NCBI GenBank assembly: GCA_034422075.1 | Contig: DAOUJX010000060.1 | Coordinates: forward strand, 5,515 to 69,514 | Reading direction: 5' to 3' | From: Dehalococcoidia bacterium | GTDB lineage: Bacteria > Chloroflexota > Dehalococcoidia > Lucifugimonadales > Australimonadaceae | DNA: 64,000 nt | Part shown: in pieces, positions 2,307 to 59,977 of the stretch | Layout: each line of letters begins with the position of its first letter | How positions within the stretch are numbered: the first letter of the stretch is position 1 | The notes under the pieces: model-generated | The model's database searches: none | What the model was told of the DNA's origin: nothing | What the model saw: the letters and a program-made list of their open reading frames with translations, nothing else | Program-made: the position numbers and the translations under genes

Positions 2307-3578
2307 ATGTCCGATGACGTTGGTCTTGTTAGCTACATCCTCGTAGGCGTGTTCGTCGTGCTTTCCGCCTTCTTCTCCGGCTCGGAGGCGGCCCTGCTGT
2401 CGGTGCAGCGCGTGCGGATTCAGGCGATGTTGGAGCACCGAGCGCCCGGCGCCCGGCGCGTAGCACGCCTCATCGAGCGGCCCGAGCGGCTGCTGCCGCC
2501 GATCTTGCTCGGCAACAACCTGGTCAACACCGCCGCCGCCGCCATCGCAACCACCATCGCCATCGCGCTCATCGACGATGAGAACACCGCAGTGCTGGTT
2601 GCCACCGTTGCCGTCACCGCCATCCTGCTGATCTTCGGCGAGACGATTCCCAAGACGGTCGGCGCACGCGCGCCGGAGCGCGCTTCCATCATCGTCGCCA
2701 TCCCTATCCAGGCAATCAGCTTCGTCCTGAAGCCCATCTCCGTCCTGCTCCAGTACGTCGGCACGCTCGTGGCGTCCGCCATCGGCGGTGAGCGCGCAGC
2801 CGTCACGGAGGCCGAAATCAAGGCGATGGTGAGCCTTGGCAGGCAGGAGGGCGAATTGGAGCATGGGGAAGCGGAGATGATCCACCGCGTGTTCGAGTTC
2901 GGCGACCGACGCGTGCGCGAGGTGATGACGCCGCGCCCTGAAATCGTCTGGGTCAACAACGACGCGACCGTCTCCGACTTCCTGCGTCTCTATGGCGAGC
3001 ACTCCCACACGCGCTTCCCCGTGCGCGATACGTCCAACGGCGACGTGCTCGGCCTGCTGTCGGTCAAAGACGTCGTACGGAGTATGGCGGCAGGGGCCGC
3101 GCTCGACGACCGCGCCGTCGGCGAGTTGCGGCAAGTCCACTTCGTGCCCGAGACCAAGCAGGTGCGCGACCTGCTCGGCGAGATGCAAGAGGCGCGCTAC
3201 CAGCTCGCGATGGTTGCCGACGAATTTGGCGACATTGCCGGCCTCGTCACGCTCAAGCGCCTCACCGAGGGCATCGTCGGCCCGACGACGGGAGATGACG
3301 AGCAGGCAGCCACGCAGGAAGTGATCGCCGTCATGGATGACACCTTCGAAATCGACGGCGGATTCGCCGTATCGGAGGCCAACGACCGGCTCGGCCTGCA
3401 ACTGCCCGAGGGTAACTACGAGACCATCGCGGGACTAGTGCTGGACTTGCTCGGCAGAGTGCCCAGGGAGGGCGATCAGGCAATCGTCGACGGCCACGCC
3501 CTGCAAGTCGTCGAGATGCGGGGCGTGCGCATCGCACGCGTCACCGTACGCCGCCCGCCACCCACGTCTGCGGAGTAG
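2307..3578 (+). CDS. CNNM/CorC-type membrane protein (DUF21 + CBS pair + CorC_HlyC; hemolysin-like)
   Basis: Hydrophobic N-terminal DUF21-like region. Typical GETIPK, REVMTPR and FPV motifs, followed by a CBS pair and a C-terminal transporter-associated domain. Confidence 0.9.
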   Translation: MSDDVGLVSYILVGVFVVLSAFFSGSEAALLSVQRVRIQAMLEHRAPGARRVARLIERPERLLPPILLGNNLVNTAAAAIATTIAIALIDDENTAVLVATVAVTAILLIFGETIPKTVGARAPERASIIVAIPIQAISFVLKPISVLLQYVGTLVASAIGGERAAVTEAEIKAMVSLGRQEGELEHGEAEMIHRVFEFGDRRVREVMTPRPEIVWVNNDATVSDFLRLYGEHSHTRFPVRDTSNGDVLGLLSVKDVVRSMAAGAALDDRAVGELRQVHFVPETKQVRDLLGEMQEARYQLAMVADEFGDIAGLVTLKRLTEGIVGPTTGDDEQAATQEVIAVMDDTFEIDGGFAVSEANDRLGLQLPEGNYETIAGLVLDLLGRVPREGDQAIVDGHALQVVEMRGVRIARVTVRRPPPTSAE

Positions 3579-8279: not shown

Positions 8280-9590
8280 TTACGCTACCTCTAGGGCGGT
8301 GGTAATGGCGCGTTGGAGAGCGGAGTCAGTGTGAAGGCGCTCGGAGACCTTGCGGACCGAGTAGAGCACGGTCGCACGGTCGCGGCCACCGAAGAGACGC
8401 CCTATCGCAGCCGGCGAGAGCTTGAGGCGGTCGGCCAGCAGGTACATCGCCACCTGGCGCGCCGTCGAACTGGCGCGGTCGCGGCGCGCCCCGGCCAATT
8501 CCGAGGGCATCAGCCCGTAGTGCTTCGAGACGGCATCGATGATGGCCTCGGGGGTAGAGGGCGGTGACGGACGCGTTTCGCGCTCCATCACGCTCTCGAC
8601 CAGCGCCGCATCGAGCGGAGCGTTGGCGAGCTGCGCGTGGGCTGCTATGCGGTTGAACGCGCCTTCCAACTGGCGCACGTTGCGCACGGGGTGTTTGGCG
8701 AGGACGTCCAACACGTCGTCAGGGACATCAAGGCCGCGGCGGGCGGCGCACCGCGCAAGGATGCCGCGCCGCGTCTCCTCCGTCGGCTTGGTGATGTCCA
8801 CCTGCAACCCCCACTCAAGGCGCGAGCGCAGCCGCTCATCAAACAGCGGCAGACGGGTGGGGTCCTGGTCCGCGGTGACGACGATCTGGCGTCCTCGCTC
8901 GTGCAGGACGTTGAAGATATGGAAGAAGGTCTCCTGCGTGCTCGACTTGCCACCGAGAAACTGGATGTCATCGACCAAGAGCAGGTCCGCCCCGCGGTAG
9001 CGCTGGTTGAATTCCGCCACGCGCCGCTCGCGTATTGCCGACGTGTAGTCGTTGGTGAACTCTTCACTGGTGACGCACAAGGGCGAGCGTCCGGCGGCCT
9101 GCGCACCGTGCATGATGGCGCGCAACAGGTGCGTCTTGCCCAGCCCCGACGTCCCGTAGATGACGAGCGGGTTGTATGAGCCCCGCGCGTTATCGGCGAT
9201 GGCGCTTGCCGCTGCGAATGCGAGATGGTTGGACGGGCCGACAACAAATGAGTCGAAGGTGTAGCGCGCGTCGGGAAGCGGCGCAGCGGGTTCATCATCG
9301 TCTGGAGACGCGCCAGCGGCACCGGAAGAAGAGGGTGGACGGAAAGTGATCTCGTAGGGCGTGCGTGAGACGGCGACGACGGCGGCGCGGACTTGGCCGA
9401 GGAGCCGCTCACGCAGCCATTCGGCGGCCAAGGACGACGGCGTGCCGACGACGAGGGAGCCGTCCTCGATGGCGATGCCGGTGGTGCCCGACAGTAGCGT
9501 GTCGAACATGGGGCGCGGCACCTGGAGTTGGAGGCGGCCAAGCGCGGCCTCCCAGACCCGTGCAGCACGGCTGACTGTAGCGCTGGACAT
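8280..9590 (-). CDS. dnaA: Chromosomal replication initiator DnaA
   Basis: DnaA N-terminal pattern (VWEAALGRLQ...), Walker A GTSGLGKTHLL, box VII, and a C-terminal DNA-binding domain (GGRDRATVLYSVRKV). Internal ATG at 9590 chosen as the start. Confidence 0.9.
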   Translation of the reverse strand: MSSATVSRAARVWEAALGRLQLQVPRPMFDTLLSGTTGIAIEDGSLVVGTPSSLAAEWLRERLLGQVRAAVVAVSRTPYEITFRPPSSSGAAGASPDDDEPAAPLPDARYTFDSFVVGPSNHLAFAAASAIADNARGSYNPLVIYGTSGLGKTHLLRAIMHGAQAAGRSPLCVTSEEFTNDYTSAIRERRVAEFNQRYRGADLLLVDDIQFLGGKSSTQETFFHIFNVLHERGRQIVVTADQDPTRLPLFDERLRSRLEWGLQVDITKPTEETRRGILARCAARRGLDVPDDVLDVLAKHPVRNVRQLEGAFNRIAAHAQLANAPLDAALVESVMERETRPSPPSTPEAIIDAVSKHYGLMPSELAGARRDRASSTARQVAMYLLADRLKLSPAAIGRLFGGRDRATVLYSVRKVSERLHTDSALQRAITTALEVA

Positions 9591-9740
9591 CGAGCGCGGC
9601 TCCGAGCAGGTTAGTGAACAGGCCGCAGGCGGACCGGTGGGCGCCTCCCCAAACCACCGAATACGGCCATGGCACGGAACGCTACCATGCCCCAAGCGTC
9701 GCGGCGCAAGAGGGAAATTGCGGGATTTCGGGAGGGGATT

Positions 9741-9748
9741 CCCCCCCC
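9741..9748. repeat. C8 homopolymer inside the hairpin GGAGGGG-ATT-CCCCCCCCTCC
   Basis: Read directly. Lies in the intergenic region upstream of dnaA. Confidence 0.9.
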
Positions 9749-14098: not shown

Positions 14099-14734
14099 GT
14101 GACGAACGCCGCGCCCCAAACCCTTGCGCCAGGCATCGTTGCGCTCGACGGCGAGCGTTTCGAGGTGGCACTGGACGCACACAAGGGTTTGCTCGATCGC
14201 CCTGCGGGACCCGGCGGGCTCACGCTCACCACGCACCGCGCAATTCGCCCCAGTTCGAGCGGGCAGCGCACCATCGTCATGGCGCTTTCCCTCCACGACG
14301 TCGGTAGCGCCGAACTGATCGAGCGCTCCGACCTCGCCAAAGGTCTGGCGCAGGCCGGGGCGCTTTTCGCCGCTGCCGCAGTGCTCGGCGGCCTTTCGTG
14401 GCTGGTGTTCGAGGCGGCGCTCTTTACCGTGCCCCTCGCGGGCATCCCCATCTTCATGGCAATCTTCATCCTCTCCGAGCACCTGCTGGGGGGGTCGAAG
14501 AGCGAGCTGCTGCTTTACACGGCGGGTGCGGTCCTGCGTCAACCATTGTTGAGCGGCACGGCGCGGCGCGACGCCCCCGCCATGCTCCACCGGCTGTTCT
14601 CCCTGAAGCACGGCATCGAGCCGGAAGAGCCGCCCGCGGCGACGCCTGTGGCCGTCCTGCGCGATACGCCGGTTGCGACGGCGCCCTTCGGCTGGACGCC
14701 CGTCCCACCGCTAGAGCGCACGCTGCCGGCCTAG
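14099..14734 (+). CDS. Hypothetical membrane protein
   Basis: Open frame with two clear hydrophobic helices (ALFAAAAVLGGLSWLVF, VPLAGIPIFMAIFIL). The start (GTG at 14099) is uncertain. Confidence 0.4.
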   Translation: MTNAAPQTLAPGIVALDGERFEVALDAHKGLLDRPAGPGGLTLTTHRAIRPSSSGQRTIVMALSLHDVGSAELIERSDLAKGLAQAGALFAAAAVLGGLSWLVFEAALFTVPLAGIPIFMAIFILSEHLLGGSKSELLLYTAGAVLRQPLLSGTARRDAPAMLHRLFSLKHGIEPEEPPAATPVAVLRDTPVATAPFGWTPVPPLERTLPA

Positions 14735-16219: not shown

Positions 16220-16921
16220 CTACTCCAACGGTTGCGCTTGGTCGAACGCCGTAAAGGTCAGGATGCGCACGACCGGCGAGGGATCGTTGGTCAGCACGCT
16301 CCCCTCGATGCGCACGCGGCGCACGAGGCTATCGCTGCCCACCCAGACCTCGATGCGGGGCGTCAACGCCGCATCCGCGCCCCGGATGAGCGGCTGTATC
16401 GCCTCGCCCCCGACGCTACCTGCGATGCCGCGGGAGGCGACGCCGTCGAGCGCGTGTGTATCGGTATATGCCGGCTCCTGAAGCGCGAGCAGGATGCCGC
16501 CAAGCGTGTCTCCCAGGTCGTGCAGGTTGAAGGGCAACTCGCTCGCCGCTACGGGCAATAGTACGCCGGAGAGCGGGTCGGTCATCGCCGCGTCGTCGCC
16601 ATCGACGCGGATCTCCATTTCGATGAAGGCGTTGATCGCGCTGACCCTCGCCTCCACCTGCACCGAAGCACGGTCGGGGAGATGGACGCTGCCTTCCGCT
16701 TGCTGCAGCTCGATGCCTGCAAAGAGCGGCGTATGCCCCTCCTCGTGCGTTAGCGTGAACTCGACGGAGGTGAGCTCGCTCATACGCGCCGCCGCGTCGG
16801 CAAGACGCTCCGACGGCGGCTGCTCCGCTGATTCTGTGGCGCTATCCTCTCCGCACGCCGCCGCAACGGCCGCGAGCACCAGAAGCAGCGGGGCGGCGGT
16901 GAGCGCCTGGACCATTCGCAT
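16220..16921 (-). CDS. LppX/LprAFG-family lipoprotein (LprG-like)
   Basis: Signal peptide plus lipobox (LAAVAAAC-G). About 230 aa. Overall pattern resembles the lipid-binding LprG family. 6 nt upstream of the MFS gene. Confidence 0.65.
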   Translation of the reverse strand: MRMVQALTAAPLLLVLAAVAAACGEDSATESAEQPPSERLADAAARMSELTSVEFTLTHEEGHTPLFAGIELQQAEGSVHLPDRASVQVEARVSAINAFIEMEIRVDGDDAAMTDPLSGVLLPVAASELPFNLHDLGDTLGGILLALQEPAYTDTHALDGVASRGIAGSVGGEAIQPLIRGADAALTPRIEVWVGSDSLVRRVRIEGSVLTNDPSPVVRILTFTAFDQAQPLE

Positions 16922-17243: not shown

Positions 17244-17256
17244 GGGGGGGGGGGGG
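17244..17256. repeat. G13 homopolymer tract
   Basis: 13 consecutive G counted directly, followed by AATTGCCCTC. Intergenic, 63 nt beyond the stop of the 74-aa gene. Confidence 0.95.
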
Positions 17257-17318: not shown

Positions 17319-17543
17319 CTAGTACGTGAAGAAGTAGACATACCATGTGGCGACCTCAGGGCCGTCACCACCCTCACCCGATTCGCACCCATGTCTCGTG
17401 GCCGCTCGATTCTCGGCCCCTTGCGCCGCCGTCTTGGTGGAGTGCAGGCTTATGACCTGCCAGTCCTGCAACGTTGGGTGCTGGCTCTCCCAGTACCTCC
17501 TCCGCGCTTCCATGTCCGTAGTGATTCCAACTCGACATGCCAT
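17319..17543 (-). CDS. Small conserved hypothetical protein (74 aa)
   Basis: Compact ORF MACRVGITTD...RRRYWESQHP...TKTAAQGAENR...WYVYFFTY. Resembles a widespread small protein family of unknown function; the family is not named with certainty. Confidence 0.5.
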   Translation of the reverse strand: MACRVGITTDMEARRRYWESQHPTLQDWQVISLHSTKTAAQGAENRAATRHGCESGEGGDGPEVATWYVYFFTY

Positions 17544-26805: not shown

Positions 26806-28107
26806 TTATGCAGATGCGGTTTGCCGAGGGATGAGCAGGTCCATCATGCCCAGCTCGTAGGATGCGTGAATCAGCACGCTGATGTTGTGGCAGAGGAACT
26901 TGAGCAGGACTTCGTTGACCTGGGCGACGGGCGTCCGTGACCGGACGGATGCCCCGTACTTGTTCTTGACCATGCTGAAGGTGCTCTCGACGTTGGAGCG
27001 CTTGTGGTAGTGCGCACTGAACTCTTCGCTGTTGAACTTGACGTAGTGATAGTACCGCTCCCACTGGCTGTCCCGTGGCAGGTCTGGTGACACAGGGCGG
27101 GACTTGGCTTTCAGCGGGATGTACGCCCTCGCGCCGACTGCCTCGACCGCACGCACGTTCGCCCTGCTCAGGTAGGCTTTGTCGGCGGAGACCTCTTCGA
27201 TGTTGAAATGCCGCGCCGTCGCCTCCACGAAGGGCGCCAGGTAGCGGGTATCGTTGGTCGGGGTTGCTGTCGCCTCTGCCTGGGTGATGATGTTCGTCTT
27301 CACACCGCAGATCGCGTGAGCCTTGACCCATAGGATGTTGCGGATTGGTCTCCCCCACTTGTGGTCAAAGTAGCGGCCGTAGACCGACGTGCCGAACCCC
27401 GTGGAGTCAATGGCGAAATCGTGCTCTACCGCAGCCAGGGGGATGGCGCTCTGCTCGATGAGCTGCTTCAGTACGGGAGTCAGCGCTGGGTCTTCCATGT
27501 ACTTCCACAGCGACGCCACCGAGGGGGCCTTGGCAATGAGGCCGTCCGTGTTGGCGCTCCGAATGCCCGTCATGGCCCGCCTGGTCGAGAATCCCCCGTA
27601 GACCTTGAGGCTTGCCGCAAATACCACATCGGACAACGGCAGGCGGGGCCGCCCCGTTCCGCTGGCTGGAGGCTGCTCGATGGTGCTGCAAAGGTCGCGG
27701 AGCAGGGTCGCAAAGTGCTCTTGCTCGTGCTCCTGCGCTGCGTTGTAGAGCGCCCAGGGCTGGCCATAGGTGGTGCCGGTTGGGAGCGTTTCCAGGTCGG
27801 CTCCCAGCCCCAACTGTCCGTCCCGTCGTTTGACGACCATTTGGACAGCGTAGATGTGCTTGCAGAGGCCCGGCCGTTCCTCAAAGTCTGGGCAACTGCA
27901 ATAGGGCTCGGCGCGGTCGACGAGGACATAGTAGGTGCCTTTGCCGGACTGGCTGGGCACCTTGTAGCCCCTTCCGGACTCCCTGATGGGCGCGAGCGCT
28001 GCTATGGCCATTCCGCGCTGCTTGCGGCCCGCGTCTCCGTCGTCGGGTGCTCCGGGGCCCAAAGCAGTGATGAGGTTGGGGTCAAAGTCGAGTCGCTGAT
28101 TCTTCAT
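26806..28107 (-). CDS. DDE transposase (IS4/IS5 superfamily) with N-terminal SWIM-type zinc finger
   Basis: SWIM signature CSCPDF...CKH and a perfect Y(2)R(3)E(6)K signature (YHKRSNVESTFSMVK). The ATG at 28107 has AGGTGA upstream. An alternative GTG lies at 28131. Confidence 0.85.
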   Translation of the reverse strand: MKNQRLDFDPNLITALGPGAPDDGDAGRKQRGMAIAALAPIRESGRGYKVPSQSGKGTYYVLVDRAEPYCSCPDFEERPGLCKHIYAVQMVVKRRDGQLGLGADLETLPTGTTYGQPWALYNAAQEHEQEHFATLLRDLCSTIEQPPASGTGRPRLPLSDVVFAASLKVYGGFSTRRAMTGIRSANTDGLIAKAPSVASLWKYMEDPALTPVLKQLIEQSAIPLAAVEHDFAIDSTGFGTSVYGRYFDHKWGRPIRNILWVKAHAICGVKTNIITQAEATATPTNDTRYLAPFVEATARHFNIEEVSADKAYLSRANVRAVEAVGARAYIPLKAKSRPVSPDLPRDSQWERYYHYVKFNSEEFSAHYHKRSNVESTFSMVKNKYGASVRSRTPVAQVNEVLLKFLCHNISVLIHASYELGMMDLLIPRQTASA

Positions 28108-28142
28108 CTGTTCACCTATGGCGAGCACCACAATCTAGGCAC

Positions 28143-28224
28143 ACAGTACTATACATTGTATGGTATTGTCAATTTCTAGCCGGAATCTGTTGCGTTGACA
28201 GTCCTATACACTGTCTCTTACTGT
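28143..28224. promoter_or_regulatory. Back-to-back promoters (both TTGACA-N18-TACTGT) with a 19-bp palindromic candidate operator
   Basis: Minus strand: TTGACA (28167-28172), TACTGT (28143-28148). Plus strand: TTGACA (28195-28200), TACTGT (28219-28224). The palindrome TACTATACATTGTATGGTA (28147-28165) lies in the minus-promoter spacer. Confidence 0.4.
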
Positions 28225-28230
28225 CCTGTC

Positions 28231-28470
28231 ATGAACGACGTGCAGCGGAAGATTGCGGCTCTACAAGAGCGGGGTTGGACCTTGGCCGCCATCGCCGATG
28301 AGCTTGGCGTGACGCCTAATGCCGTCGAGAAGTGGAAGGCCGGCGTCCGCAACGCTACCAACCTCAAGTCCATTCTGGAGCACTTGGAGCGGCTGCAGCA
28401 CCGGCAACGTATCCCGAAGCAGCGCCGATACCAACTGGGGCGTTCACACAGAGCCGTGAGGAGTCGTTGA
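28231..28470 (+). CDS. Small helix-turn-helix DNA-binding protein (80 aa)
   Basis: HTH segment WTLAAIADELGVTPNAVEKW. The ATG lies 6 nt after the putative -10, so the transcript may be leaderless. Confidence 0.65.
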   Translation: MNDVQRKIAALQERGWTLAAIADELGVTPNAVEKWKAGVRNATNLKSILEHLERLQHRQRIPKQRRYQLGRSHRAVRSR

Positions 28471-28538
28471 TGGCTAAAGGCAAGAGCTTCAATTGGGATC
28501 GGCCCAAGCGCTGGGAGCGCAAGGTAGTGGAGGCCTAG
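28470..28538 (+). CDS. Possible 22-aa micro-ORF (MAKGKSFNWDRPKRWERKVVEA)
   Basis: The ATG overlaps the HTH stop (TGATG) and has GAGGAG upstream. Very short, so speculative. Confidence 0.25.
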   Translation: MAKGKSFNWDRPKRWERKVVEA

Positions 28539-28542
28539 CGTT

Positions 28543-30109
28543 ATGGGCGCTAAAGAACGCCGTGCTTCTCGCGCGCGCGTGACGAGTCCGCGCCTGCGGC
28601 CCCCCCCCGAGTCCATACCTAGGGGGACATGCCCTCGTCTGCGCGGACAACCTCGACATACTCAAGGGACTGCCCCCCGAGTGCGTTGACCTCATCTACT
28701 TAGACCCCCCCTTTCAGAGCAATCAGTTCTATGTTGCCGCCTTCGGCGACAAGGGGATGGTGGCGCGGCAGTTGCGCGACATATGGCGCTGGACTGCAGG
28801 GACGCAGACAGCGTTCGACAGCCTGCCACACGGCCAGTTGCTTGACACTCTACAGGGTATTCGCTTGCAAGTAGGGGAGAAGTCGCCAATGGCCGCGTAT
28901 GCGGTGTTCATGGGGCGGCGGCTTGCTGAGATGAGAAGGGTGCTCAAGCCGACGGGGAGCATCTATCTACATTGCGACTGGCACGCGAACGCCTACCTAC
29001 GGCTGCTCATGGATGCAGTGTTTGGGGCAGGCAACTTCAGGAATGAGATCGCGTGGTGCTATGACACGGCTGGGCGGACGCAACGCTACTGGAACCGCAA
29101 GCACGATTCCATTTTCTTCTACTCAAAGATGCAAGGGTGGACGTTCAACCCATTACGCATCCCTCGGCGCAACCTAACGGAAGGTTGGGAATCGTGGTAT
29201 TCGCTTACTGATGAGGATGGGCGCCGGTATCAAATAGACGGCAAGGGGTACAAGTACTACGCAGATGAAGGGCGCTTGGCAAATGACTGGTGGGATGATC
29301 TTCCCGCCCTGCACGCCCATAGGGATGAAGAACGAATAGGCTACCCCACACAGAAGCCGGTTGCCCTGCTGGAGCGCATCATCAAGGCCAGCAGCAACGC
29401 AGGTGACCTAGTGCTCGACCCATTTTGTGGGTGCGGTTCTGCGGCGGATGCAGCATACGCCAATGGCAGGCGCTACCTCGGTATCGACATCAGCGGGATC
29501 GCGGTACGTGTTATGCAGCAGCGAATGGAGTCGCGCGGCGATTCCCCATCGGTCTATGGGCTGACGTGGGATGAGATGGAATGGGAGGAGTTCGAGTATC
29601 GAGCACTCGCGCAGCGCGACGACGTGGAGGACGGTATACCAGGCTGGGCATGGGCAGAGGACAGGGTAGCAGCGCTGCTAAACGCGGTGCCGAACGAACG
29701 CAAGGTGGGCGACGGCGGCGTGGACGCGCGCTACTACGGCGCGATGGACATCGAACAACAGCAGGGAATCGTGATTCCCATACAGGTGAAGATGCACCGC
29801 ACGGCCTCGGTTGGGCGCCCCGACATGGATCGGCTGTTGGGCACGCAGACTGCGATGCAGAACCGAGGCGTGCACGCGCCGATGTCCCTCATGGTGAGTC
29901 TCTACCCGCCGCCGGAGTCCCTGCGTGTGTTTGCGATGGAGCAGGGGCGGGTGGCGCTGACGACACACGAAGGTGGGCATGAGGAATACCCGCGTATGCA
30001 GGTATTGAGCGTGGAGGAGATGTTGAGGCACGGAGAACGTCCGAAGTTGCCACCAGTGGACCCTCGCTCACTCGTCGGCGATACACAAACCCGAACCTCA
30101 TTGGTCTAG
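28543..30109 (+). CDS. Beta-class N6A/N4C DNA methyltransferase fused to a C-terminal Mrr-type (PD-(D/E)xK) nuclease domain; frame broken at a C9 tract
   Basis: Motif IV DLIYLDPPF comes before motif I VLDPFCGCGSA. C-terminal GDGGVDARYYG...VIPIQVK matches the Mrr catalytic pattern. The ATG at 28543 (GGAGG upstream) is +1 out of frame with the body. One fewer C at 28600-28608 restores a single ORF. Confidence 0.8.
28600..28608. repeat. C9 homopolymer at the frameshift point of the methyltransferase-nuclease gene
   Basis: Nine consecutive C counted directly. Confidence 0.95.
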
Positions 30110-30289
30110 ATGCGCCGACGGCGTAAGAGCATCCTCACCTTGGCCACAGACAATTGAAGTCTTCCACCGGCTCGCATCGACGTTTTGTCCCTCTCGACAT
30201 CGGACAAAAGGGTGGACGCTCGACATCTGATTGACGCCCCACAAACCGTGATGAGACCATCCATGGCGAGGATACGTTTCCATCATTGT

Positions 30290-30318
30290 TTGTTATTGTT
30301 AGTCAGTTAGTGTAAAAT
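30290..30318 (+). promoter_or_regulatory. Sigma70-type promoter TTGTTA-N17-TAAAAT
   Basis: AT-rich island 43 nt upstream of the AAA+ ATPase ATG, with hexamers at canonical spacing. Confidence 0.5.
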
Positions 30319-30360
30319 CCATCACATGACCGATCGGGCGCACGAGAGAGGCAGAGCCAT

Positions 30361-31632
30361 ATGAGCAAGAGGCGCAGGGCGAGCAAGAGCAGCCGGGAAA
30401 AGTTGATTAACCGGGAAATCCAGCTAGGTGAGGTGTTTACGCCGGCGGCGCCCATTGACCAACTGAGCCTTTTCGCTGGGCGTATTTCACAGAGGCGCTC
30501 GGTCGTCGACGCGATCTTTCAGCGCGGCCGCCACGCAATATTGTTTGGGGAGCGTGGTGTTGGCAAGACTTCGCTCGCCAGCGTCTTGCGCGAGTACCTT
30601 GAGAGCCTCGGACAGATCATCGTTGCTCCTCGTGTGAACTGCGACGACGGCGATGACTACTCAACGATCTGGTTCAAGGCTTTCGGTGACCTGCAGGTCA
30701 TTGAGAGCCGTCGAGGTATGGGCTTTACACCGGAGGTGCAGGCGATCGTTCGCTCAGCGAGCGACTCAATCGGAAACCTAGAATCTGTCACCCCTCACTA
30801 CGTACGGCAGTTACTAGAACAGCTCGGCGAGCAAACGATTCTAATTGTGATTGTCGACGAATTCGACCGTGTGGCCAGCCGGGTAGGGACGCAATTCGCT
30901 GACACCATCAAGATGCTCTCCGATCAGTCAGTGCCCGTGACACTGGTGCTCGTCGGGGTCGGCGAGACAGTCAGCTCGCTCATCAGCGAGCACGCTTCGA
31001 TTGAGCGCGCACTCGCTCAGGTGCGCCTACCCCGTATGTCTACATCCGAACTGCAAGAAATCGTCGACGGCGGGCTCTCAGAAGTCGGGATGTCCGCCGA
31101 GACAGTCGCACGGGACCGGATCGCTGCACTGTCGCAGGGGCTCCCGCACTACACTCACCTCATAGCGCTTTATGCGGCTCGTGATGCGAACGATGCCGGA
31201 TTGGACGTGGTAGGGGTCGAGAACGTCGCCGCAGGAATCCGCGAGGCGGTAGAGAACGCTCAGGAAACGATTACAACGACGCACCATCGGGCCGTGATGA
31301 GCACTCGGTCTGACTCACTCTACCGCCACGTTGCGCTCGCCTGCGCGCTTACTGAGACCGATGAGCGGGGCTACTTCACAGCAGGCGCGGTGCGGGAGCC
31401 GATGGCGGCAATTATGGGCAAGCCGTACGCGATTCCCGCGTTCGCAAAACACATGAACGAATTCTGCGGTGACCTGCGCGGCCCTATCCTTGAGAAGTTC
31501 GGAACGCAGCGGAACTACCGGTTCAGATTCCATAACCCCCTGCACCCACCCTACATAATCATGAGCGGAATCGCCCAGGGGCTGATCGCTGAGGACACGG
31601 CAGTTAGCATCCAGAACGGCGCGAGTGGCTAG
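30361..31632 (+). CDS. AAA+ ATPase, ORC/Cdc6-like (archaeal-ATPase type) with C-terminal winged-helix-like region
   Basis: Walker A GERGVGKTS, Walker B ILIVIVDEFDRV, a sensor-like region, and a basic N-terminus (KRRRASKSSREK). Confidence 0.8.
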   Translation: MSKRRRASKSSREKLINREIQLGEVFTPAAPIDQLSLFAGRISQRRSVVDAIFQRGRHAILFGERGVGKTSLASVLREYLESLGQIIVAPRVNCDDGDDYSTIWFKAFGDLQVIESRRGMGFTPEVQAIVRSASDSIGNLESVTPHYVRQLLEQLGEQTILIVIVDEFDRVASRVGTQFADTIKMLSDQSVPVTLVLVGVGETVSSLISEHASIERALAQVRLPRMSTSELQEIVDGGLSEVGMSAETVARDRIAALSQGLPHYTHLIALYAARDANDAGLDVVGVENVAAGIREAVENAQETITTTHHRAVMSTRSDSLYRHVALACALTETDERGYFTAGAVREPMAAIMGKPYAIPAFAKHMNEFCGDLRGPILEKFGTQRNYRFRFHNPLHPPYIIMSGIAQGLIAEDTAVSIQNGASG

Positions 31633-31689
31633 GGAAATCCCGCGGTTATCGCGCGCGCGAGTCTTGAGGCACCTAGGGGGAGTCCCAAT

Positions 31690-31749
31690 TTTCAGAACCG
31701 CACGCTCTTCCACGGTGACAACCTAGCCATTCTGCGTGGGATGAACTCC
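31690..31749 (+). pseudogene. Remnant of a second DNA methyltransferase N-terminus (FQNRTLFHGDNLAILRGMNS)
   Basis: Paralogous at the protein level to ALVCADNLDILKGLP of the intact gene. No start codon and no DPPF follow. Runs into the 3' end of the Fic gene. Confidence 0.45.
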
Positions 31750-31794
31750 GCGTGGGAAGACCCGGGCACCGCATCGGGCGATTATTGGCAGGCC

Positions 31795-32400
31795 CTAGGG
31801 CTCACCAATTTGTTGGCGAACCAGTTCCCCGATGAGCGACATGAGTGGGATGAGGTCGCCGCGATCCGCCCACTCTAATGCTTGCACGTAACGCGAATGG
31901 TGCGCACCTTCGAGTAACTCAGGCAAGAGTGGGCGGCCTGGTAGCAATCCCCCGACCTTAAGGCAGAGAGTAAGGTAGCACACAGCCCGTGCAGTGCGCC
32001 CATTGCCGTTCACGAAGGGGTGGACAGAGTTGATGCGCCACAGCGCGTAAGCCGCCAACCGCAACTCCGACCAATCCGCCCAAGCATCATTCACTTGGCG
32101 GACGAATTGGCTCATCAGGTCAGGTACGCATGTGTGGTCGGGCGGGCGATAGCGTACCACCCCCTGATCATCCATCACCGTAACGTTCGTTGTGCGGTAT
32201 TGGCCTGCCGTCGAGTGGAGCAAGACGACAGCCTGATAGTTTATTGCCTTGATACGCCAGTCGCTCAACTGGGGCGACTGCGTTTGCAGAGCAACCTTGA
32301 TGAGGGTCTGAAGGAAGTGGTAGTAGCGCTCAGAGTTTTCAGCTTCGACGGCTCGATAGAGTGGGTTCTCTTCGCCGCCCTTGAGCTGGGCGAGGTTCAA
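31795..32400 (-). CDS. Fic-domain protein (putative AMPylase/toxin)
   Basis: Fic motif HPFVNGNGRTAR (31987-32022). 201 aa. Last gene of a four-gene operon. Confidence 0.9.
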   Translation of the reverse strand: MNLAQLKGGEENPLYRAVEAENSERYYHFLQTLIKVALQTQSPQLSDWRIKAINYQAVVLLHSTAGQYRTTNVTVMDDQGVVRYRPPDHTCVPDLMSQFVRQVNDAWADWSELRLAAYALWRINSVHPFVNGNGRTARAVCYLTLCLKVGGLLPGRPLLPELLEGAHHSRYVQALEWADRGDLIPLMSLIGELVRQQIGEP

Positions 32401-32405
32401 GACAC

Positions 32406-32618
32406 TTACTCTGTGATCGGCCCGTAGCGGTCATCGAGCATCTGCATGACCTCCTCGCGAGACATCGTGCTCCTTCTGCCACTGAAGCCCATGACTGCGG
32501 AGACGAGTTGCTCCCGCTTCTCTTTCGGAGTCATCAGAGGGTAGCGTTTCGTGGCCTCTGCTAGCAGATCACTGGTTTCTTTGAACCACGCTTCGTCCTT
32601 CCCGAATTTTGCTGCCAT
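32406..32618 (-). CDS. 70-aa helical protein, candidate Fic partner/antitoxin
   Basis: Stop lies 5 nt before the Fic start. Charged and helical. No canonical (S/T)xxxE(G/N) motif; the closest is TMSREE. Confidence 0.45.
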   Translation of the reverse strand: MAAKFGKDEAWFKETSDLLAEATKRYPLMTPKEKREQLVSAVMGFSGRRSTMSREEVMQMLDDRYGPITE

Positions 32619-32650
32619 CGCTACTCTCCTTTGCAGTTACGGTAAGGGCA

Positions 32651-32920
32651 TCAGCGGCTGACGGCGAGGCGCCTGAGATGTACTTGCCCTTCATCGTCAT
32701 CTATATCGAAGTAGAGGCGGAGGGGCAGTTGCGCCCCCCTGATGTGTATCACATGAAACCGAGTCCCAGGGACCATCGGGGCCAAGTGGGGAGTAAGAGC
32801 AAGGTCGCGGTAGTACCCTGCGAGAATCTCATCCCAACGCATGAAGGAGCCGACAATGCTCTCAACTTGGGCTTGGAACTGTGCCGACTCGACCATTGTG
32901 TAGGAGGGCCTACCGTCCAA
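32651..32920 (-). CDS. Small RelE/ParE-like toxin candidate (81-89 aa)
   Basis: C-terminal pattern LRLYFDIDDDEGQVHLRRL resembles the RelE/ParE fold. Overlaps the stop of the upstream DUF4065 gene. Start is the TTG at 32920 or the ATG at 32896. Confidence 0.4.
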   Translation of the reverse strand: MDGRPSYTMVESAQFQAQVESIVGSFMRWDEILAGYYRDLALTPHLAPMVPGTRFHVIHIRGAQLPLRLYFDIDDDEGQVHLRRLAVSR

Positions 32921-33473
32921 GACCGAGTTCTTCAGTGAGCGCTAGGCTATGCTCAATGTCTTCCTCGTCAATATACTCCAATGAAAGCCATGCGGACGAA
33001 TAGGGGATGTCCTCCATTGGCTTTGCGGCCAGCCAGCCCCATTCTAGATGAGACAGCTCCGACGCCTCTCTTGCCGTCATGTGCCAAAGCTCTCCAATGA
33101 CCTCATCGAGGATTTCCACTTCCTCTGGACGTAGGATGCCTTCCGTCGGTTCGTCCAAGGCGACGATGCGGTGTTGGACGCCAGTAAAATAAGGGCGAGG
33201 CTCAATGCGGATGGCCTCCTTGCGTATCAGCCTTCGCCTTGCCTCAAGCATTTGCTTCGGCGCAGGGCCTTGATCTAACCGATAGTACGTCGCTCCGGTG
33301 ATAGGCTCACCCAGCCTCCGGTATGCCTCAAAGTCGGCGAAGTAGAGGATCTTATTGAGCTTGACGGCTCCGAAGCGCTCATCCCCCTCGCTGTGCTTGG
33401 CGATATAGATGATGGCCTCATCGAATTTGCGTTCGTCGAATGTTTCTATGTAGGGGCGGCCCACTTCCGCCAT
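32910..33473 (-). CDS. Panacea/DUF4065 (SocA/GepA-like) antitoxin-domain protein
   Basis: Core pattern AVKLNKILYFADFEAYRRLGEPITGATYYRLDQGPAP. 187 aa. SD CAGGAGG upstream. Confidence 0.75.
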   Translation of the reverse strand: MAEVGRPYIETFDERKFDEAIIYIAKHSEGDERFGAVKLNKILYFADFEAYRRLGEPITGATYYRLDQGPAPKQMLEARRRLIRKEAIRIEPRPYFTGVQHRIVALDEPTEGILRPEEVEILDEVIGELWHMTAREASELSHLEWGWLAAKPMEDIPYSSAWLSLEYIDEEDIEHSLALTEELGLGR

Positions 33474-33532
33474 GACGCCTCCTGACTAGTTTGAGCCTCG
33501 ACTAATCCTAGCCTCCTTGAGGCTGACAGGCC

Positions 33533-33561
33533 CATATAATACAAATATACACAATTGTCAA
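33533..33561 (-). promoter_or_regulatory. Sigma70-type promoter TTGACA-N17-TATATG for the DUF4065...Fic operon
   Basis: Read on the minus strand in an AT-rich island 60-88 nt upstream of the ATG at 33473. Confidence 0.55.
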
Positions 33562-33644
33562 CACCACCCTCAACCTCTTAGTGTCACGAGATCTTATCCT
33601 GCGGCGGGCTGACTGCCCTCCAGCCCCATCGCTAGACTGGATGG

Positions 33645-33661
33645 GGTTCTTGTGCAAAGCC
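33645..33661. repeat. Internal copy of the right terminal repeat (GGTTCTTGTGCAAAGCC, 15/17 identical)
   Basis: Same orientation as the IR-R at 34750-34766. Confidence 0.6.
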
Positions 33662-34109
33662 AAGGCACCCCAGGAGTCTCGGTTGGTTGAGGAATGCCTC
33701 GCGGTGCTCCTCGTAGATCTGCTCTTTGTCCATGCCCTCGTATACAGAGCCTGAATCCATGTGGCGCGACCTTCTCCCTAGTCCTCGCCCTCGTCCTTGT
33801 CGTTGTCTTGTGCTTGCCGTTCCCTGTACAGCATGTCTAGGGGCAGCGACCGCCAAGGGCAGTCGGGCTCGACACAGAGCGTGTCCGCCCTAGCGGTCTC
33901 GATCCCGCACGTGCATATGCCCATGGGGCCTCCCAGGGAAGATCCCGGCCGTCATGGCCAAGAACCGCCGACCACTTGCGGCCTGTAGTAAAATACGCTC
34001 ACGCGGCATACAGCAAAACAGGGGCATTAGGCGTGCCCCTGGATGCTCAGCGTAGGCTGGAATGCACTAACGTCGTAAAGCGCATTCTACTTCCTGCTCA
34101 AAGGATGTC

Positions 34110-34146
34110 AAGCCCGCGCGGAGACAACTCGCGCGGGCTTTTGCTT
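34110..34146 (+). terminator. Intrinsic-terminator-like hairpin (AAGCCCGCGCG-9nt-CGCGCGGGCTT + TTGCTT)
   Basis: 11-bp GC-rich stem followed by a T-rich tail on the plus strand only. No annotated plus-strand CDS lies upstream. Confidence 0.5.
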
Positions 34147-34349
34147 GGCCCTCGCGGAGAAAGGAAGTGCGCCTATGCCTACCCGAAAAATAGGCATCCG
34201 CCGGACAGTGCGCGTGGGAACACGCGTAACGGTCAAACGGAAGGTAACCGTTAGAACCACCCGGCGACGATAGCCCAAGGACAGGCACCCTGATCTTTGG
34301 TCAGGGTGCCCATCCTACACACCTCACACCACTAGGTAGGAGGAAAGGC

Positions 34350-34688
34350 GTGGCTAGGAATGTCGTCAGGTCAGGGCTGCACCACAGAAAAAGCAGGAGG
34401 AGCCTGGTGTCCCAAGATGAGGTGCTGATATGTGTCGAATGTAGAGTCGAAGCCCAAGTTGAAGGTGTCGACGGTCAGATTGACCGAATAACCTGTCCAT
34501 CGTGTGCCGTGTCGGTCGAAGGCGATAGCGGTCTCGAGATGGCACTCAAACAATTGAGCCATGACACTATCCGTGAATTCCAGGAGCGCCTCAAGCGCAC
34601 ATTTGGAAAAGGCGGCCCGGTCAGCTATAGCCCCGGCCGCCTCAATAACCCTAGAAGCCCATTCATCGTCGGTATACCTGACTCGTAG
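34350..34688 (+). CDS. Small zinc-ribbon protein (CxxC...CxxC), hypothetical
   Basis: CVEC and CPSC pairs. GTG start with AGGAGG 9 nt upstream. Confidence 0.5.
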   Translation: MARNVVRSGLHHRKSRRSLVSQDEVLICVECRVEAQVEGVDGQIDRITCPSCAVSVEGDSGLEMALKQLSHDTIREFQERLKRTFGKGGPVSYSPGRLNNPRSPFIVGIPDS

Positions 34689-34711
34689 GGGCTAGTCTTC
34701 TCTGGGAACGG

Positions 34712-34743
34712 GGTTGATGTGCAAAGAGCCGAGTTTTTGTGCA
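34712..34743. repeat. Subterminal repeat boxes (GGTTGATGTGCAAAGAGCC + CGAGTTTTTGTGCA)
   Basis: The first box resembles the IR. The 14-mer CGAGTTTTTGTGCA also occurs at 26778-26791 in the same orientation. Confidence 0.55.
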
Positions 34744-34749
34744 GGAGGC

Positions 34750-34766
34750 GGTTTCTGTGCAAAGCC
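34750..34766. repeat. Terminal inverted repeat, right (GGTTTCTGTGCAAAGCC)
   Basis: Exact reverse complement of 26749-26765. Confidence 0.9.
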
Positions 34767-34776
34767 CACCCTAACT
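34767..34776. repeat. Target-site duplication, right copy (CACCCTAACT)
   Basis: Identical to 26739-26748. Confidence 0.85.
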
Positions 34777-34904
34777 ACAACATGTTGTGGATTCGTTTCG
34801 TACAGACCCCAATTTGTGCTAACGAGGCTTCCATTGCCACACTTGACGTTTTTTTGCGCAGAGTGTTAGCGTGGCTCAATACACCTTGATGCGGAGGGGG
34901 CGCC

Positions 34905-36059
34905 GTGATTTCACCGGCTCGTATCCAGGTCACTGAACTGCGCAGGACATACGGGTTCGAGGAGGTGGCGATAGTCCCGGGCGACGTTACGACCAACCCC
35001 GAGCTCTCGATCACTATCCTCGAAATCGGCCCCTTCCAATTCACCACGCCCGTCATCGCCTCGGCGATGGACGCCATCGTCGATGCCAACTTTGCCGGCC
35101 TAATGGCCAAGGCGGGCGGCCTTGGCGTCATGAACCTCGAAGGCGTCTACTCCCGCTACGAGGACCCCGCCGAGGCGCTTGAGGCCATCACCTCCGCCCC
35201 CCGCGAGAGCGTGACGGAGGTGATGCAGAGCGTGTACTCGCAGCCGTTGCGCGATGACCTCGTTGCGCAGCGTGTCGCCGACATCAAGGCGACGGGCGCG
35301 GTTGCCGCCGTCTCCGTCACTCCGCAGAGCGCCAAGCGGCTGGCTCAGGTCGCGGTCGAGGCAGGCGCCGACATCATCGTCGTCCAATCCACCGTCACCA
35401 CGGCGCGGCACATCTCCAACTCCTACCACGGGCTGCGCTTCTCCGAACTTATCCCGCTCATCAGAGTTCCGGTCGTTGTCGGCAACTGCGTAACCTACAG
35501 CGCGGCGCTCGAACTGATGGAGCAGGGCATCGACGGGTTGTTGGTCGGCGTTGGACCGGGCGCGGCCTGCACGACGCGCGACGTTACGGGCGTCGGCGTA
35601 CCGCAGGTGAGCGCAACGCTCGACTGCGCGGCAGCGCGAGACGAGTACTTCGCGCGATCCGGCAAGCACGTTGCGGTTATCACCGACGGCGGGATTCGCA
35701 CGGGCGGCGACCTATGCAAGGCCATCGCAGCGGGCGCCGACGGCGTCATGATTGGCACACCGTTCGCGCAGACGCTGGAGGCGCCGGGCCGCGGCTTCAA
35801 CTGGGGCATGGCGAGCCCGCATCCGGCGCTGCCGCGCGGCACGCGCATCAACGTCGGCGTGGAGGCATCTCTCGAGCAGGTTCTCTTCGGGCCGAGCCAC
35901 CGCACCGACGGGACGCACAACCTGATGGGCGCACTCAAGGTCTGCATGTCGATGGTCGGCGCGCAGACTATAGAGGAGTTCCACGAGCGCGCCGAGCTAG
36001 TGGTAGCGCCCACCATCGCAACGGAGGGCAAGGTCTTCCAGCGCGCGGGGCGGATCTAA
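34905..36059 (+). CDS. IMP dehydrogenase-family protein lacking a CBS insert (GuaB3-like)
   Basis: TIM-barrel IMPDH/GMPR pattern (TTPVIASAMD, GVGPGAACTTR, ITDGGIRTGGD). 384 aa. Confidence 0.85.
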   Translation: MISPARIQVTELRRTYGFEEVAIVPGDVTTNPELSITILEIGPFQFTTPVIASAMDAIVDANFAGLMAKAGGLGVMNLEGVYSRYEDPAEALEAITSAPRESVTEVMQSVYSQPLRDDLVAQRVADIKATGAVAAVSVTPQSAKRLAQVAVEAGADIIVVQSTVTTARHISNSYHGLRFSELIPLIRVPVVVGNCVTYSAALELMEQGIDGLLVGVGPGAACTTRDVTGVGVPQVSATLDCAAARDEYFARSGKHVAVITDGGIRTGGDLCKAIAAGADGVMIGTPFAQTLEAPGRGFNWGMASPHPALPRGTRINVGVEASLEQVLFGPSHRTDGTHNLMGALKVCMSMVGAQTIEEFHERAELVVAPTIATEGKVFQRAGRI

Positions 36060-58835: not shown

Positions 58836-59977
58836 CGCGGGAAGGTCAGGTCGTAGGAGATCTGCTTGAAGCCCGTCGTGAAGGTCTGGGTTTGCGCGGA
58901 CTTCACCCTGTTGCCCCAGAACTCGATGGACGCGTTGTTGTAGGTGCTGGTGGCGGAAACCAGCAGGTGGTATCTGCCGTTCGCCCCTATATCCGCCCTG
59001 ACCCAGATGTCCGGCTGACCAGGCTTGCTGATCCGTGCATAGACGGGGAACTGCCCCGCTTGCGCGATGCCGCTGCCTACCCGCACTGTCCCCGAGAAAA
59101 TCGTGGGCAGCGGCGGCGGCGCCGCATCGTTACCGAGGGCAGGTGGCGGCCCAAGGTTGACGAGGCCGCCCAACAACTGCGGTAGCACCAGCGTCTGCAG
59201 CGAGTCGATGCCGACGCCGAACGACTCCCCGGTGCTCCCGATGCCGATTTCCTCCATGAACCTATCGCTCATGCGAACGCCTAGGAGCTGGCCGTTCCGG
59301 CTGAAGATGGAGCCTCCTTCAACCCCTGCAGGAATGGGCACTGGTATCTGGAAGTAGTTGATGCCCGTGTTGAGGTCGGATTCGCCGCCGAGTACGTTCG
59401 CCTGGCGCTGGTCGAGCGCCGAACCCTCGGTCGCCGGGTAGCCGAACACGAGGACGTCGTCTCCTATGCCGGGCGTGGTCGACCCGAACCGGTCTGAGAG
59501 GTTGAACCCGGCTCCGCCGCTAATGACCTCCAGTAGTGCCAGGTCCCACGTGTCATTACGCCCAATAGTCCACGCCTGGCCGGACTGCCCACTGTCGGTC
59601 TCGTAGTCGACGAGGGGCGATTGGCCCATGTTGCTCGAGGTGGTGAGGATGTAGCCGCGCGAGTCGATGAGCACGCCGGACCAGCGTCTCTCGCCAAGCG
59701 ACAGGCGGACGGCTGACATAGTGGCGTACATCTGGGCATCTCTGACGGTGGGCGTCGGCGTAGCAGTCGGTGTGGCCGTTGGCGTTGGCGTTGGCGGTAT
59801 CGGCGTCGCTGTGGGAGTTGCGGTGGGGGTCGGCGAGGGAGTCGGTGTCGCCGTGGGCGTAGGAGACGGCGTTGGAGGCGCCGGCGTCGGGGTGGGCTGC
59901 GGGGGGGCGCCGCCGCGGCAAGCGGCAAGGGTTATCAACAACGCTGTAAGTGCGGCAAGGAGGATTCGAGACTTCAT
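58832..59977 (-). CDS. Trypsin-fold lipoprotein with a degenerate catalytic triad (likely pseudoprotease)
   Basis: Lipobox LAAC-R and a 60-aa PT linker. Alignment to the neighbouring HtrA gives TTSSNM versus TNNHVV (His lost), DLALLE (Asp kept), and GVEGGS versus GNSGGP (Ser replaced by Glu). Confidence 0.65.
   Translation of the reverse strand: MKSRILLAALTALLITLAACRGGAPPQPTPTPAPPTPSPTPTATPTPSPTPTATPTATPIPPTPTPTATPTATPTPTVRDAQMYATMSAVRLSLGERRWSGVLIDSRGYILTTSSNMGQSPLVDYETDSGQSGQAWTIGRNDTWDLALLEVISGGAGFNLSDRFGSTTPGIGDDVLVFGYPATEGSALDQRQANVLGGESDLNTGINYFQIPVPIPAGVEGGSIFSRNGQLLGVRMSDRFMEEIGIGSTGESFGVGIDSLQTLVLPQLLGGLVNLGPPPALGNDAAPPPLPTIFSGTVRVGSGIAQAGQFPVYARISKPGQPDIWVRADIGANGRYHLLVSATSTYNNASIEFWGNRVKSAQTQTFTTGFKQISYDLTFPR

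Follow-up and report, generated by a model that had tools for sequence, protein, structure and literature searches.

Phase variation of restriction–modification genes by changes in simple sequence repeats has been described in several forms. In cj0031 of Campylobacter jejuni, a single-polypeptide restriction–modification gene is ON when its G tract has nine residues (G9) and OFF at G10, the tract being present in only a subset of alleles; joint switching of the two activities has been argued to avoid the toxicity of restriction without methylation (PMC4889913). In Type III systems, phase-variable mod alleles bear the hallmark of conserved ends and a swapped recognition domain (PMC5909438). More generally, a homopolymer at the 5′ end of a gene gives efficient and reversible truncation after a few codons, as with the poly-A run of Listeria monocytogenes inlA (PMC2831843). 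Here we describe a gene for a DNA methyltransferase–nuclease whose reading frame is split by a run of nine cytosines (C9), found in 64,000 nucleotides (nt) of a Dehalococcoidia bacterium (GenBank assembly GCA_034422075.1, contig DAOUJX010000060.1, positions 5,515 to 69,514; hereafter the window, counted from its first letter as position 1). We propose, with a probability of roughly 0.6, that this run is a slipped-strand phase-variable switch and that the assembled consensus represents its OFF state.

A methyltransferase–nuclease gene split at a C9 run

The gene has a single start codon, an ATG at 28543 on the + strand, preceded by a Shine–Dalgarno-like GGAGG (28529-28533, +) at a spacing of 9 nt. 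From this ATG the leader coding segment (MGAKERRASRARVTSPRLR; 28543-28599, +) runs into the C9 homopolymer, the candidate slippage tract (28600-28608, +), which begins 57 nt past the ATG and has a G on either side. Translation in the leader frame starts MGAKERRASRARVTSPRLRPPPESIPRG, reads C9 as PPP and continues through the out-of-frame start of the methyltransferase to a TGA at 28687-28689, giving an open reading frame (ORF) of 48 codons as sequenced (28543-28689, +). The body of the gene lies in the +1 frame relative to the leader, as an ORF at 28583-30109 (+) with 508 sense codons and a stop at 30107-30109. It follows an in-frame TGA at 28580-28582 and contains no ATG, GTG or TTG before 28757. 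That first canonical start is downstream of DPPF (28703-28714, +), the catalytic motif IV of a beta-class N6/N4 methyltransferase, and the 450-residue ORF that it opens (28757-30109, +) is therefore without motif IV. Because an AAGGGG abuts this ATG with zero spacer, its ribosome-binding site looks poor, and we infer that the 450-residue product would not be made in useful amounts. Removing one C or adding two in silico (C8 or C11) yields a single 521-residue ORF that joins leader and body. A first-pass annotation, made from the sequence alone, had already described the GGAGG-preceded ATG, the leader frame that crosses C9 to its early stop, the body frame lacking a start codon until beyond DPPF, and the fusion of both frames at C8 with the N-terminus that it predicts; each of these held when the sequence was read again. 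The window's own database record annotates only a 406-residue fragment of the gene.

Two further features of the 5′ region were considered. Non-canonical starts in the methyltransferase frame (ATA, CTG and ATC between 28583 and 28702) were rejected, because their use would delete the conserved YLxGxALVCxDN segment. A promoter scan gave no sigma-70-like promoter directly upstream of 28543, which is uninformative.

In the switch that we propose, a hypermutable poly-C tract would separate a short leader, which would provide the only ribosome-binding site and start codon, from a body that encodes the methyltransferase and an Mrr-like nuclease as a single polypeptide. Since the body lacks an independent start codon ahead of DPPF, active enzyme would depend on the leader ATG being in frame, and the frame would be set solely by tract length, with C8, C11 and C14 in frame and C9 out. 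Slipped-strand mispairing at replication would add or remove a C, shifting the body in or out of frame and toggling the methylation and nuclease activities together. The C9 consensus would be an OFF state, one C above the nearest ON length (C8). Such a switch presumably entails frequent and reversible length change in the population from which the window derives, an OFF state that abolishes both activities, and some benefit, for example in phage defence versus DNA uptake or in epigenetic regulation.

This arrangement resembles cj0031 in that methyltransferase and endonuclease share one polypeptide, and a G/C homopolymer within the coding frame switches, or here would switch, both together; in each case, moreover, only some alleles carry the tract and alleles differ in the recognition domain. 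The two differ in build and in host. Whereas cj0031 encodes a 1243-residue Type IIG enzyme with M.TaqI homology and has its tract in mid-gene (position 2573 of 3732 bp; PMC4889913), the window enzyme comprises about 520 residues, combines a beta-class PF01555 domain with a C-terminal Mrr-like domain, and has its tract at the very 5′ end, preceded by a leader that the enzyme can do without; its host is an uncultured environmental bacterium rather than a host-adapted pathogen. We did not assign the gene to the MmeI/Cj0031-type Type IIG enzymes, because its methyltransferase is beta-class, not M.TaqI-like gamma-class, and its nuclease-like domain is C-terminal; by analogy, it may work similarly to them. 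With the Type III mod phasevarions (ModA, ModM and ModH; PMC5909438, PMC7383803) it shares an N6-adenine-type methyltransferase gene that would be switched by a simple sequence repeat, and a central recognition domain that is exchanged between conserved 5′ and 3′ parts. Unlike them, it has no res partner and carries its nuclease fused to the methyltransferase. Membership of the Type III Mod/Res class was likewise rejected, as there is no res-like neighbour and the flanks differ at every orthologous locus. The inlA-type switches also have a homopolymer near the 5′ end of the gene, but the runs surveyed there are for the most part poly-A/T and no longer than about 7, compared with poly-C of 9-19 in GC-rich genomes here (PMC2831843).

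Poly-C tracts in orthologous genes

The comparison that carries most weight is with orthologues, which the first-pass annotation had suggested examining. Our set comprised the eight loci that have a proline-containing leader and retrievable DNA, chosen partly by N-terminal appearance; tract lengths throughout come from consensus assemblies. A pure poly-C run of C10-C19 occupies the junction between leader and enzyme in 8/8 of these loci, and both frame states occur. Four loci are in frame, with C10 (L165), C12 (L171), C13 (L170) and C14 (L084), and three are out of frame: the ATG leader of L082/L083 precedes C11 and would need C10, L167 has C17 and would need C16, and L166 has C19 and would need C18. 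The start codon of the eighth locus (L169, C12) lies off its contig, a long-read contig of 2x coverage; the flanks of this tract, CTGCGG-Cn-G, are window-like. The tract-bearing orthologues, too, have Shine–Dalgarno-like purine runs ahead of the leader ATG. In the closest comparison of opposite states, L165 (C10) and L082 (C11) share about 96% DNA identity and are one C apart, and they come from different samples and genomic contexts. The gene and its orthologues display four sequence features of a homopolymer contingency locus: a G/C run of about 8 or more near the start, truncation on a change of one base either way, length that varies between alleles and a run kept beyond coding need.

Two details of these loci deserve separate mention. 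L166 and L167 were initially candidates for two independent length variants; they read TCA + C19 and TCTAA + C17, respectively, but the distance between ATG and tract end is equal in both, tract-edge substitutions account for the difference, and they are counted as one event. L082 has an ATG leader at 2976 and an in-frame GTG upstream of the tract at 3001 (25 nt downstream of the ATG), which start two of the three frames entering the tract; full-length enzyme could thus arise, perhaps in unequal amounts, from two of three tract-length classes.

We argue that selection would keep the DNA run and not a protein motif, on five grounds. First, the leaders and linkers that flank the prolines vary in sequence and length. 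Second, most close homologues start MADHRYL(A/S)GNALVC, about five residues before the conserved core, and an Arg-rich extension that ends in a proline run is confined to a subset; the enzyme can therefore do without the extension. Third, CCC is disfavoured, accounting for 18.5% of proline codons outside the tract in tract-bearing genes compared with 57% for CCG. Fourth, long G/C runs are rare: apart from the tracts, the only run of at least 9 in 39 kb around tract-bearing loci is an artefactual G33 at a contig end, and 73 kb around tract-less close relatives holds a single G10. This G10 (L005, 1617-1626) belongs to a Dehalococcoidia genome, in which a MADH-type copy without a tract follows about 1.4 kb downstream. 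The G33 opens the L167 contig (positions 1-33) and is followed by T6 + G7; it looks like a poly-G read artefact of two-colour chemistry, which makes that contig end unreliable.

Fifth, the tract was seen only in this subset of the family. A 5′ tract was present in 0/8 MADH-type loci and in 0/80 loci on viral contigs, all of them distant homologues, and a 5′ G/C tract was found in none of about 150 more distant cellular homologues. A scan of a genome collection returned no close tract-bearing relatives, only the short MADH type, and a scan of Joint Genome Institute (JGI) metagenomes gave no close alleles among the matches listed, all of them relatives at or below 46% identity. The homologue whose N-terminal motif is most like that of the window (P0108) has no DNA on record. 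Among the top 120 matches, 22 gene calls are truncated at the N-terminus. The suspicion that every one is a poly-C out-of-frame allele was borne out only in part: it is true of P0113, P0115 and P0104, and P0101 and P0077 are nonsense mutants of a tract-less subtype.

Despite the out-of-frame tracts, the gene bodies are well preserved. Outside a central block, L166 and L167 differ by 4 non-synonymous and 28 synonymous changes, a ratio of non-synonymous to synonymous divergence (dN/dS) of 0.04, and L165 and L082 by 4 and 21 (dN/dS 0.06); neither pair has stops or indels in its coding sequence there. By this measure the bodies are under strong purifying selection, and the genes are not dead. The window's 508-codon frame, for its part, retains all positions invariant among 40 family members, which indicates that its frameshift is recent or reversible. 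The central block itself (117-155 aligned columns, about residues 140-290, between the catalytic and AdoMet-binding halves) has a protein identity of only 41-44% and a synonymous divergence (dS) above 1.8 in both pairs, compared with 96-97% DNA identity at both ends, and has therefore been exchanged. Its location is that of the recognition domain in beta-class enzymes. The exchange looks like a swap of target-recognition domains, implying different methylation specificities. In the window, the corresponding variable region, the presumed target-recognition domain, spans approximately 29036-29338 (+), as estimated from variable family-consensus columns and the orthologue-pair blocks.

Taken together, orthologue tracts in both frame states, close allele pairs and a tract kept against codon preference support the phase-variable reading, which the first-pass annotation had put forward as a candidate; switching in the window's own population remains a candidate on this comparative evidence.

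Counter-evidence and competing explanations

Several observations weigh against a switch. The window has a GC content of 66%, and dinucleotide-preserving shuffles of it average 0.66 C9/G9 nine-mers, compared with the C9 and one G13 that it contains; the C9 run alone is within chance for this base composition, and it is where the tract lies, and that orthologues have one there too, that goes beyond chance. C9 is also the shortest tract in the family, for which the lowest mutability is expected. That L166 and L167 have an out-of-frame length in common, at a dS of about 0.1, is unlike what the simplest fast random switching would give. An in-frame (C8) allele nearly identical to the window gene is absent from the protein collection, in which exact look-ups also found neither the C8 fusion protein nor the 48-residue ORF. 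Because the loci were chosen by the look of their N-termini, the ratio of in-frame to out-of-frame orthologues is not unbiased, and the lengths of the short-read C17 and C19 tracts and of the 2x-coverage L169 tract may be imprecise. Finally, two tract-less genes with a long MPRLKPND... leader are each inactivated by a single nonsense codon, L168 by a TGA at the Cys of PDEC (about 1435-1440) and L172 by a TAA at the Tyr of YLxGN (about 1420-1430), which shows that the family also decays by ordinary mutation.

Some of these points would be explained by a recent fixed frameshift, in which insertion of one C inactivated the gene, leaving a pseudogene in the making and a tract that is a mere mutational hotspot. 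The nonsense codons of L168 and L172 indicate that gene loss is tolerated, the window gene sits in a mobile, defence-rich island beside an IS5-family transposase, and both the shortness of C9 and the lack of a recorded in-frame allele of this exact gene fit such an event. We nevertheless consider it unlikely. The 508-codon frame has acquired no second lesion and has lost none of the family-invariant residues; the orthologues retain long pure-C runs against codon preference, whereas selection for gene stability should have broken these runs up; and even the out-of-frame orthologues evolve at dN/dS 0.04-0.06.

The split could also be an assembly or sequencing indel: the organism would have an intact gene with C8 (or C11), and a consensus error would have added the surplus C. 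Indel errors are commonest at homopolymers, the defect here amounts to exactly one base and the rest of the gene looks functional. However, a Logan contig from run SRR13587046 (7,835 bp) is 100% identical to window positions 27988-35822, C9 included; it comes from an independent assembler, working possibly on the same reads as the window's record, and SRR13587046 is thus possibly not an independent read set. A run of nine is a length that Illumina or HiFi consensus normally gets right. Elsewhere in the window, no gene is broken at a homopolymer of at least 7: C8 at 53390, G7 at 14488 and G7 at 59901 lie within intact ORFs, and C8 at 9741 (upstream of dnaA) and G13 at 17244 are intergenic, which gives no sign of systematic homopolymer error. 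The first-pass annotation had offered an assembly indel as the alternative to a switch; it emerges weakened, and we retain it as a lesser and rather improbable rival.

A third possibility is recoding, in which +1 ribosomal slippage on CCC-C, or slippage of RNA polymerase, would make C9 a low-level or regulated ON state. CCC-C is a +1-prone codon context and poly-proline stalls ribosomes; in addition, 3/3 independent lineages that are clearly out of frame (the window, L082 and L166/L167) are one C above an in-frame length, and L166 and L167 share this +1 state at a dS of about 0.1 under strong purifying selection. Four orthologues are plainly in frame, however, so expression requires no frameshift; 3/3 at +1 has p ~0.125 and is not significant, L169 appears to be at -1 (with its start codon off the contig), and no stop or rare codon directly follows the tract. 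We therefore regard recoding as improbable. Its more elaborate form, in which the one-C-too-many state is a substrate for +1 frameshifting or polymerase slippage whose output is set by tract length together with poly-proline factors (elongation factor P (EF-P) and tRNA-Pro modification), would explain both the 3/3 lineages at +1 and the two diverged alleles that share it under strong purifying selection, and strikes us as similarly improbable.

If the C9 tract is instead a phase-variable switch, the consequences reach beyond this gene. Our literature search found nothing on phase-variable restriction–modification genes in Dehalococcoidia or Chloroflexi, the term matches concerning other organisms, and published surveys cover Type I and Type III systems in REBASE. 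To our knowledge, repeat-mediated switching of restriction–modification has been documented almost entirely in host-adapted pathogens. The gene described here suggests that uncultured, Dehalococcoidia-like bacteria of the environment use this strategy too, on a compact methyltransferase–nuclease fusion whose 5′ end is a recognisable leader–poly-C module and whose alleles exchange the recognition domain. What is new is mainly the taxonomic and ecological setting and the effect on annotation, the type of switch being already known. Were the reading true, single consensus genomes would under-report the active defence and methylation repertoire, and gene callers would systematically mis-annotate such genes as truncated, as in the 406-residue call. 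Metagenomic read pile-ups at the tracts could then measure switching in natural populations.

Enzyme domains, genomic setting and minor features

The identity of the enzyme is well founded at its methyltransferase end. In the fused protein, a match to Pfam PF01555 (N6/N4 DNA methylase; E=3.9e-40) begins at residue 48 (VDLIYLDPPF), which is why the 450-residue ORF as sequenced is without catalytic motif IV. The S-adenosylmethionine (AdoMet)-binding motif I, DPFCGCG (29417-29437, +), is invariant in the family alignment. An N-terminal DPPF and a C-terminal DPFCGCG, together with the PF01555 match, place the domain among the beta-class N6/N4 DNA methyltransferases. In sequence and predicted fold it is nearest the beta-class adenine enzymes RsrI, M.BceJIV, MboIIA and CcrM, and it also aligns with the Mod subunits of EcoP15I and Mbo45V.

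The C-terminal 180 or so residues (29561-30106, +) make up another domain that is strongly conserved, a putative Mrr-like PD-(D/E)xK nuclease with a weak Pfam match. For the window protein itself, Mrr_cat (PF04471) scores 18.9 bits, below the 21-bit cut-off (E=0.0016); among close homologues, 22/40 match at E<=0.001, the best at 1.4e-6. The domain contains a GDGGVD...IQVK motif (29708-29791, +) of conserved residues, in which D390, D394, Q414 and K416 are invariant across 40 sequences. An AlphaFold2 model, built on the 450-residue ORF (28757-30109), renders the C-terminal domain confidently, with a predicted local distance difference test (pLDDT) score of 80-94, and Foldseek matches it weakly to the endonuclease EcoO109I (probability 0.92, E=0.011). 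The name methyltransferase–nuclease, given in the first-pass annotation, is a fair label in view of these two domains, the nuclease activity being predicted.

The nearest relatives of the gene are in Dehalococcoidia metagenome-assembled genomes, often in several copies per genome; judged by these homologues alone, the window would probably come from a related Chloroflexota bacterium. Two-domain homologues with 31-39% identity are common on IMG/VR viral contigs (L173-L252); they cover the methyltransferase and most of the C-terminal domain, and the two-domain architecture thus also occurs on phages.

In the window, the gene lies within a mobile/defence-type island (26806-33473). An IS5-family DDE transposase with a SWIM zinc finger (26806-28131, -) is followed by a gene for a small helix-turn-helix (HTH) protein (28195-28470). 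A 22-codon ORF (MAKGKSFNWDRPKRWERKVVEA; 28470-28538) with a GAGGAG ribosome-binding site begins on the last base of the stop codon of the HTH gene and ends 4 nt before the leader ATG. Downstream of the methyltransferase–nuclease gene are genes for a STAND/AAA ATPase (30361-31632), a Fic-domain protein (31795-32400, -) and a SocA/Panacea antitoxin-like protein (32910-33473, -), the last overlapped by an 89-residue ORF (32651-32920, -). No res-like gene lies beside the methyltransferase gene, which is flanked by the HTH protein and the STAND/AAA ATPase; the ATPase is not conserved at other loci. Neighbouring genes are different at every orthologous locus examined (dnaA, uvrB, groES, ldh and others), and the gene therefore behaves as a stand-alone cassette. 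The Logan contig (L001) ends inside the IS5-family transposase, as expected of a repeated element.

Two other homopolymers of the window stand near genes. The C8 at 9741-9748 is a G8 on the strand of dnaA (8280-9695, -), about 50 nt upstream of the listed start of that gene; because it carries dnaA, the window is probably near a replication origin. The G13 at 17244-17256 (C13 on the minus strand) is the longest homopolymer of the window. It lies 63 nt past the 3′ end of a 74-residue minus-strand ORF (17319-17543) and about 320 nt upstream of a minus-strand lipoprotein-like gene (16220-16921), and could be a second hypermutable tract, possibly one that acts on a promoter.

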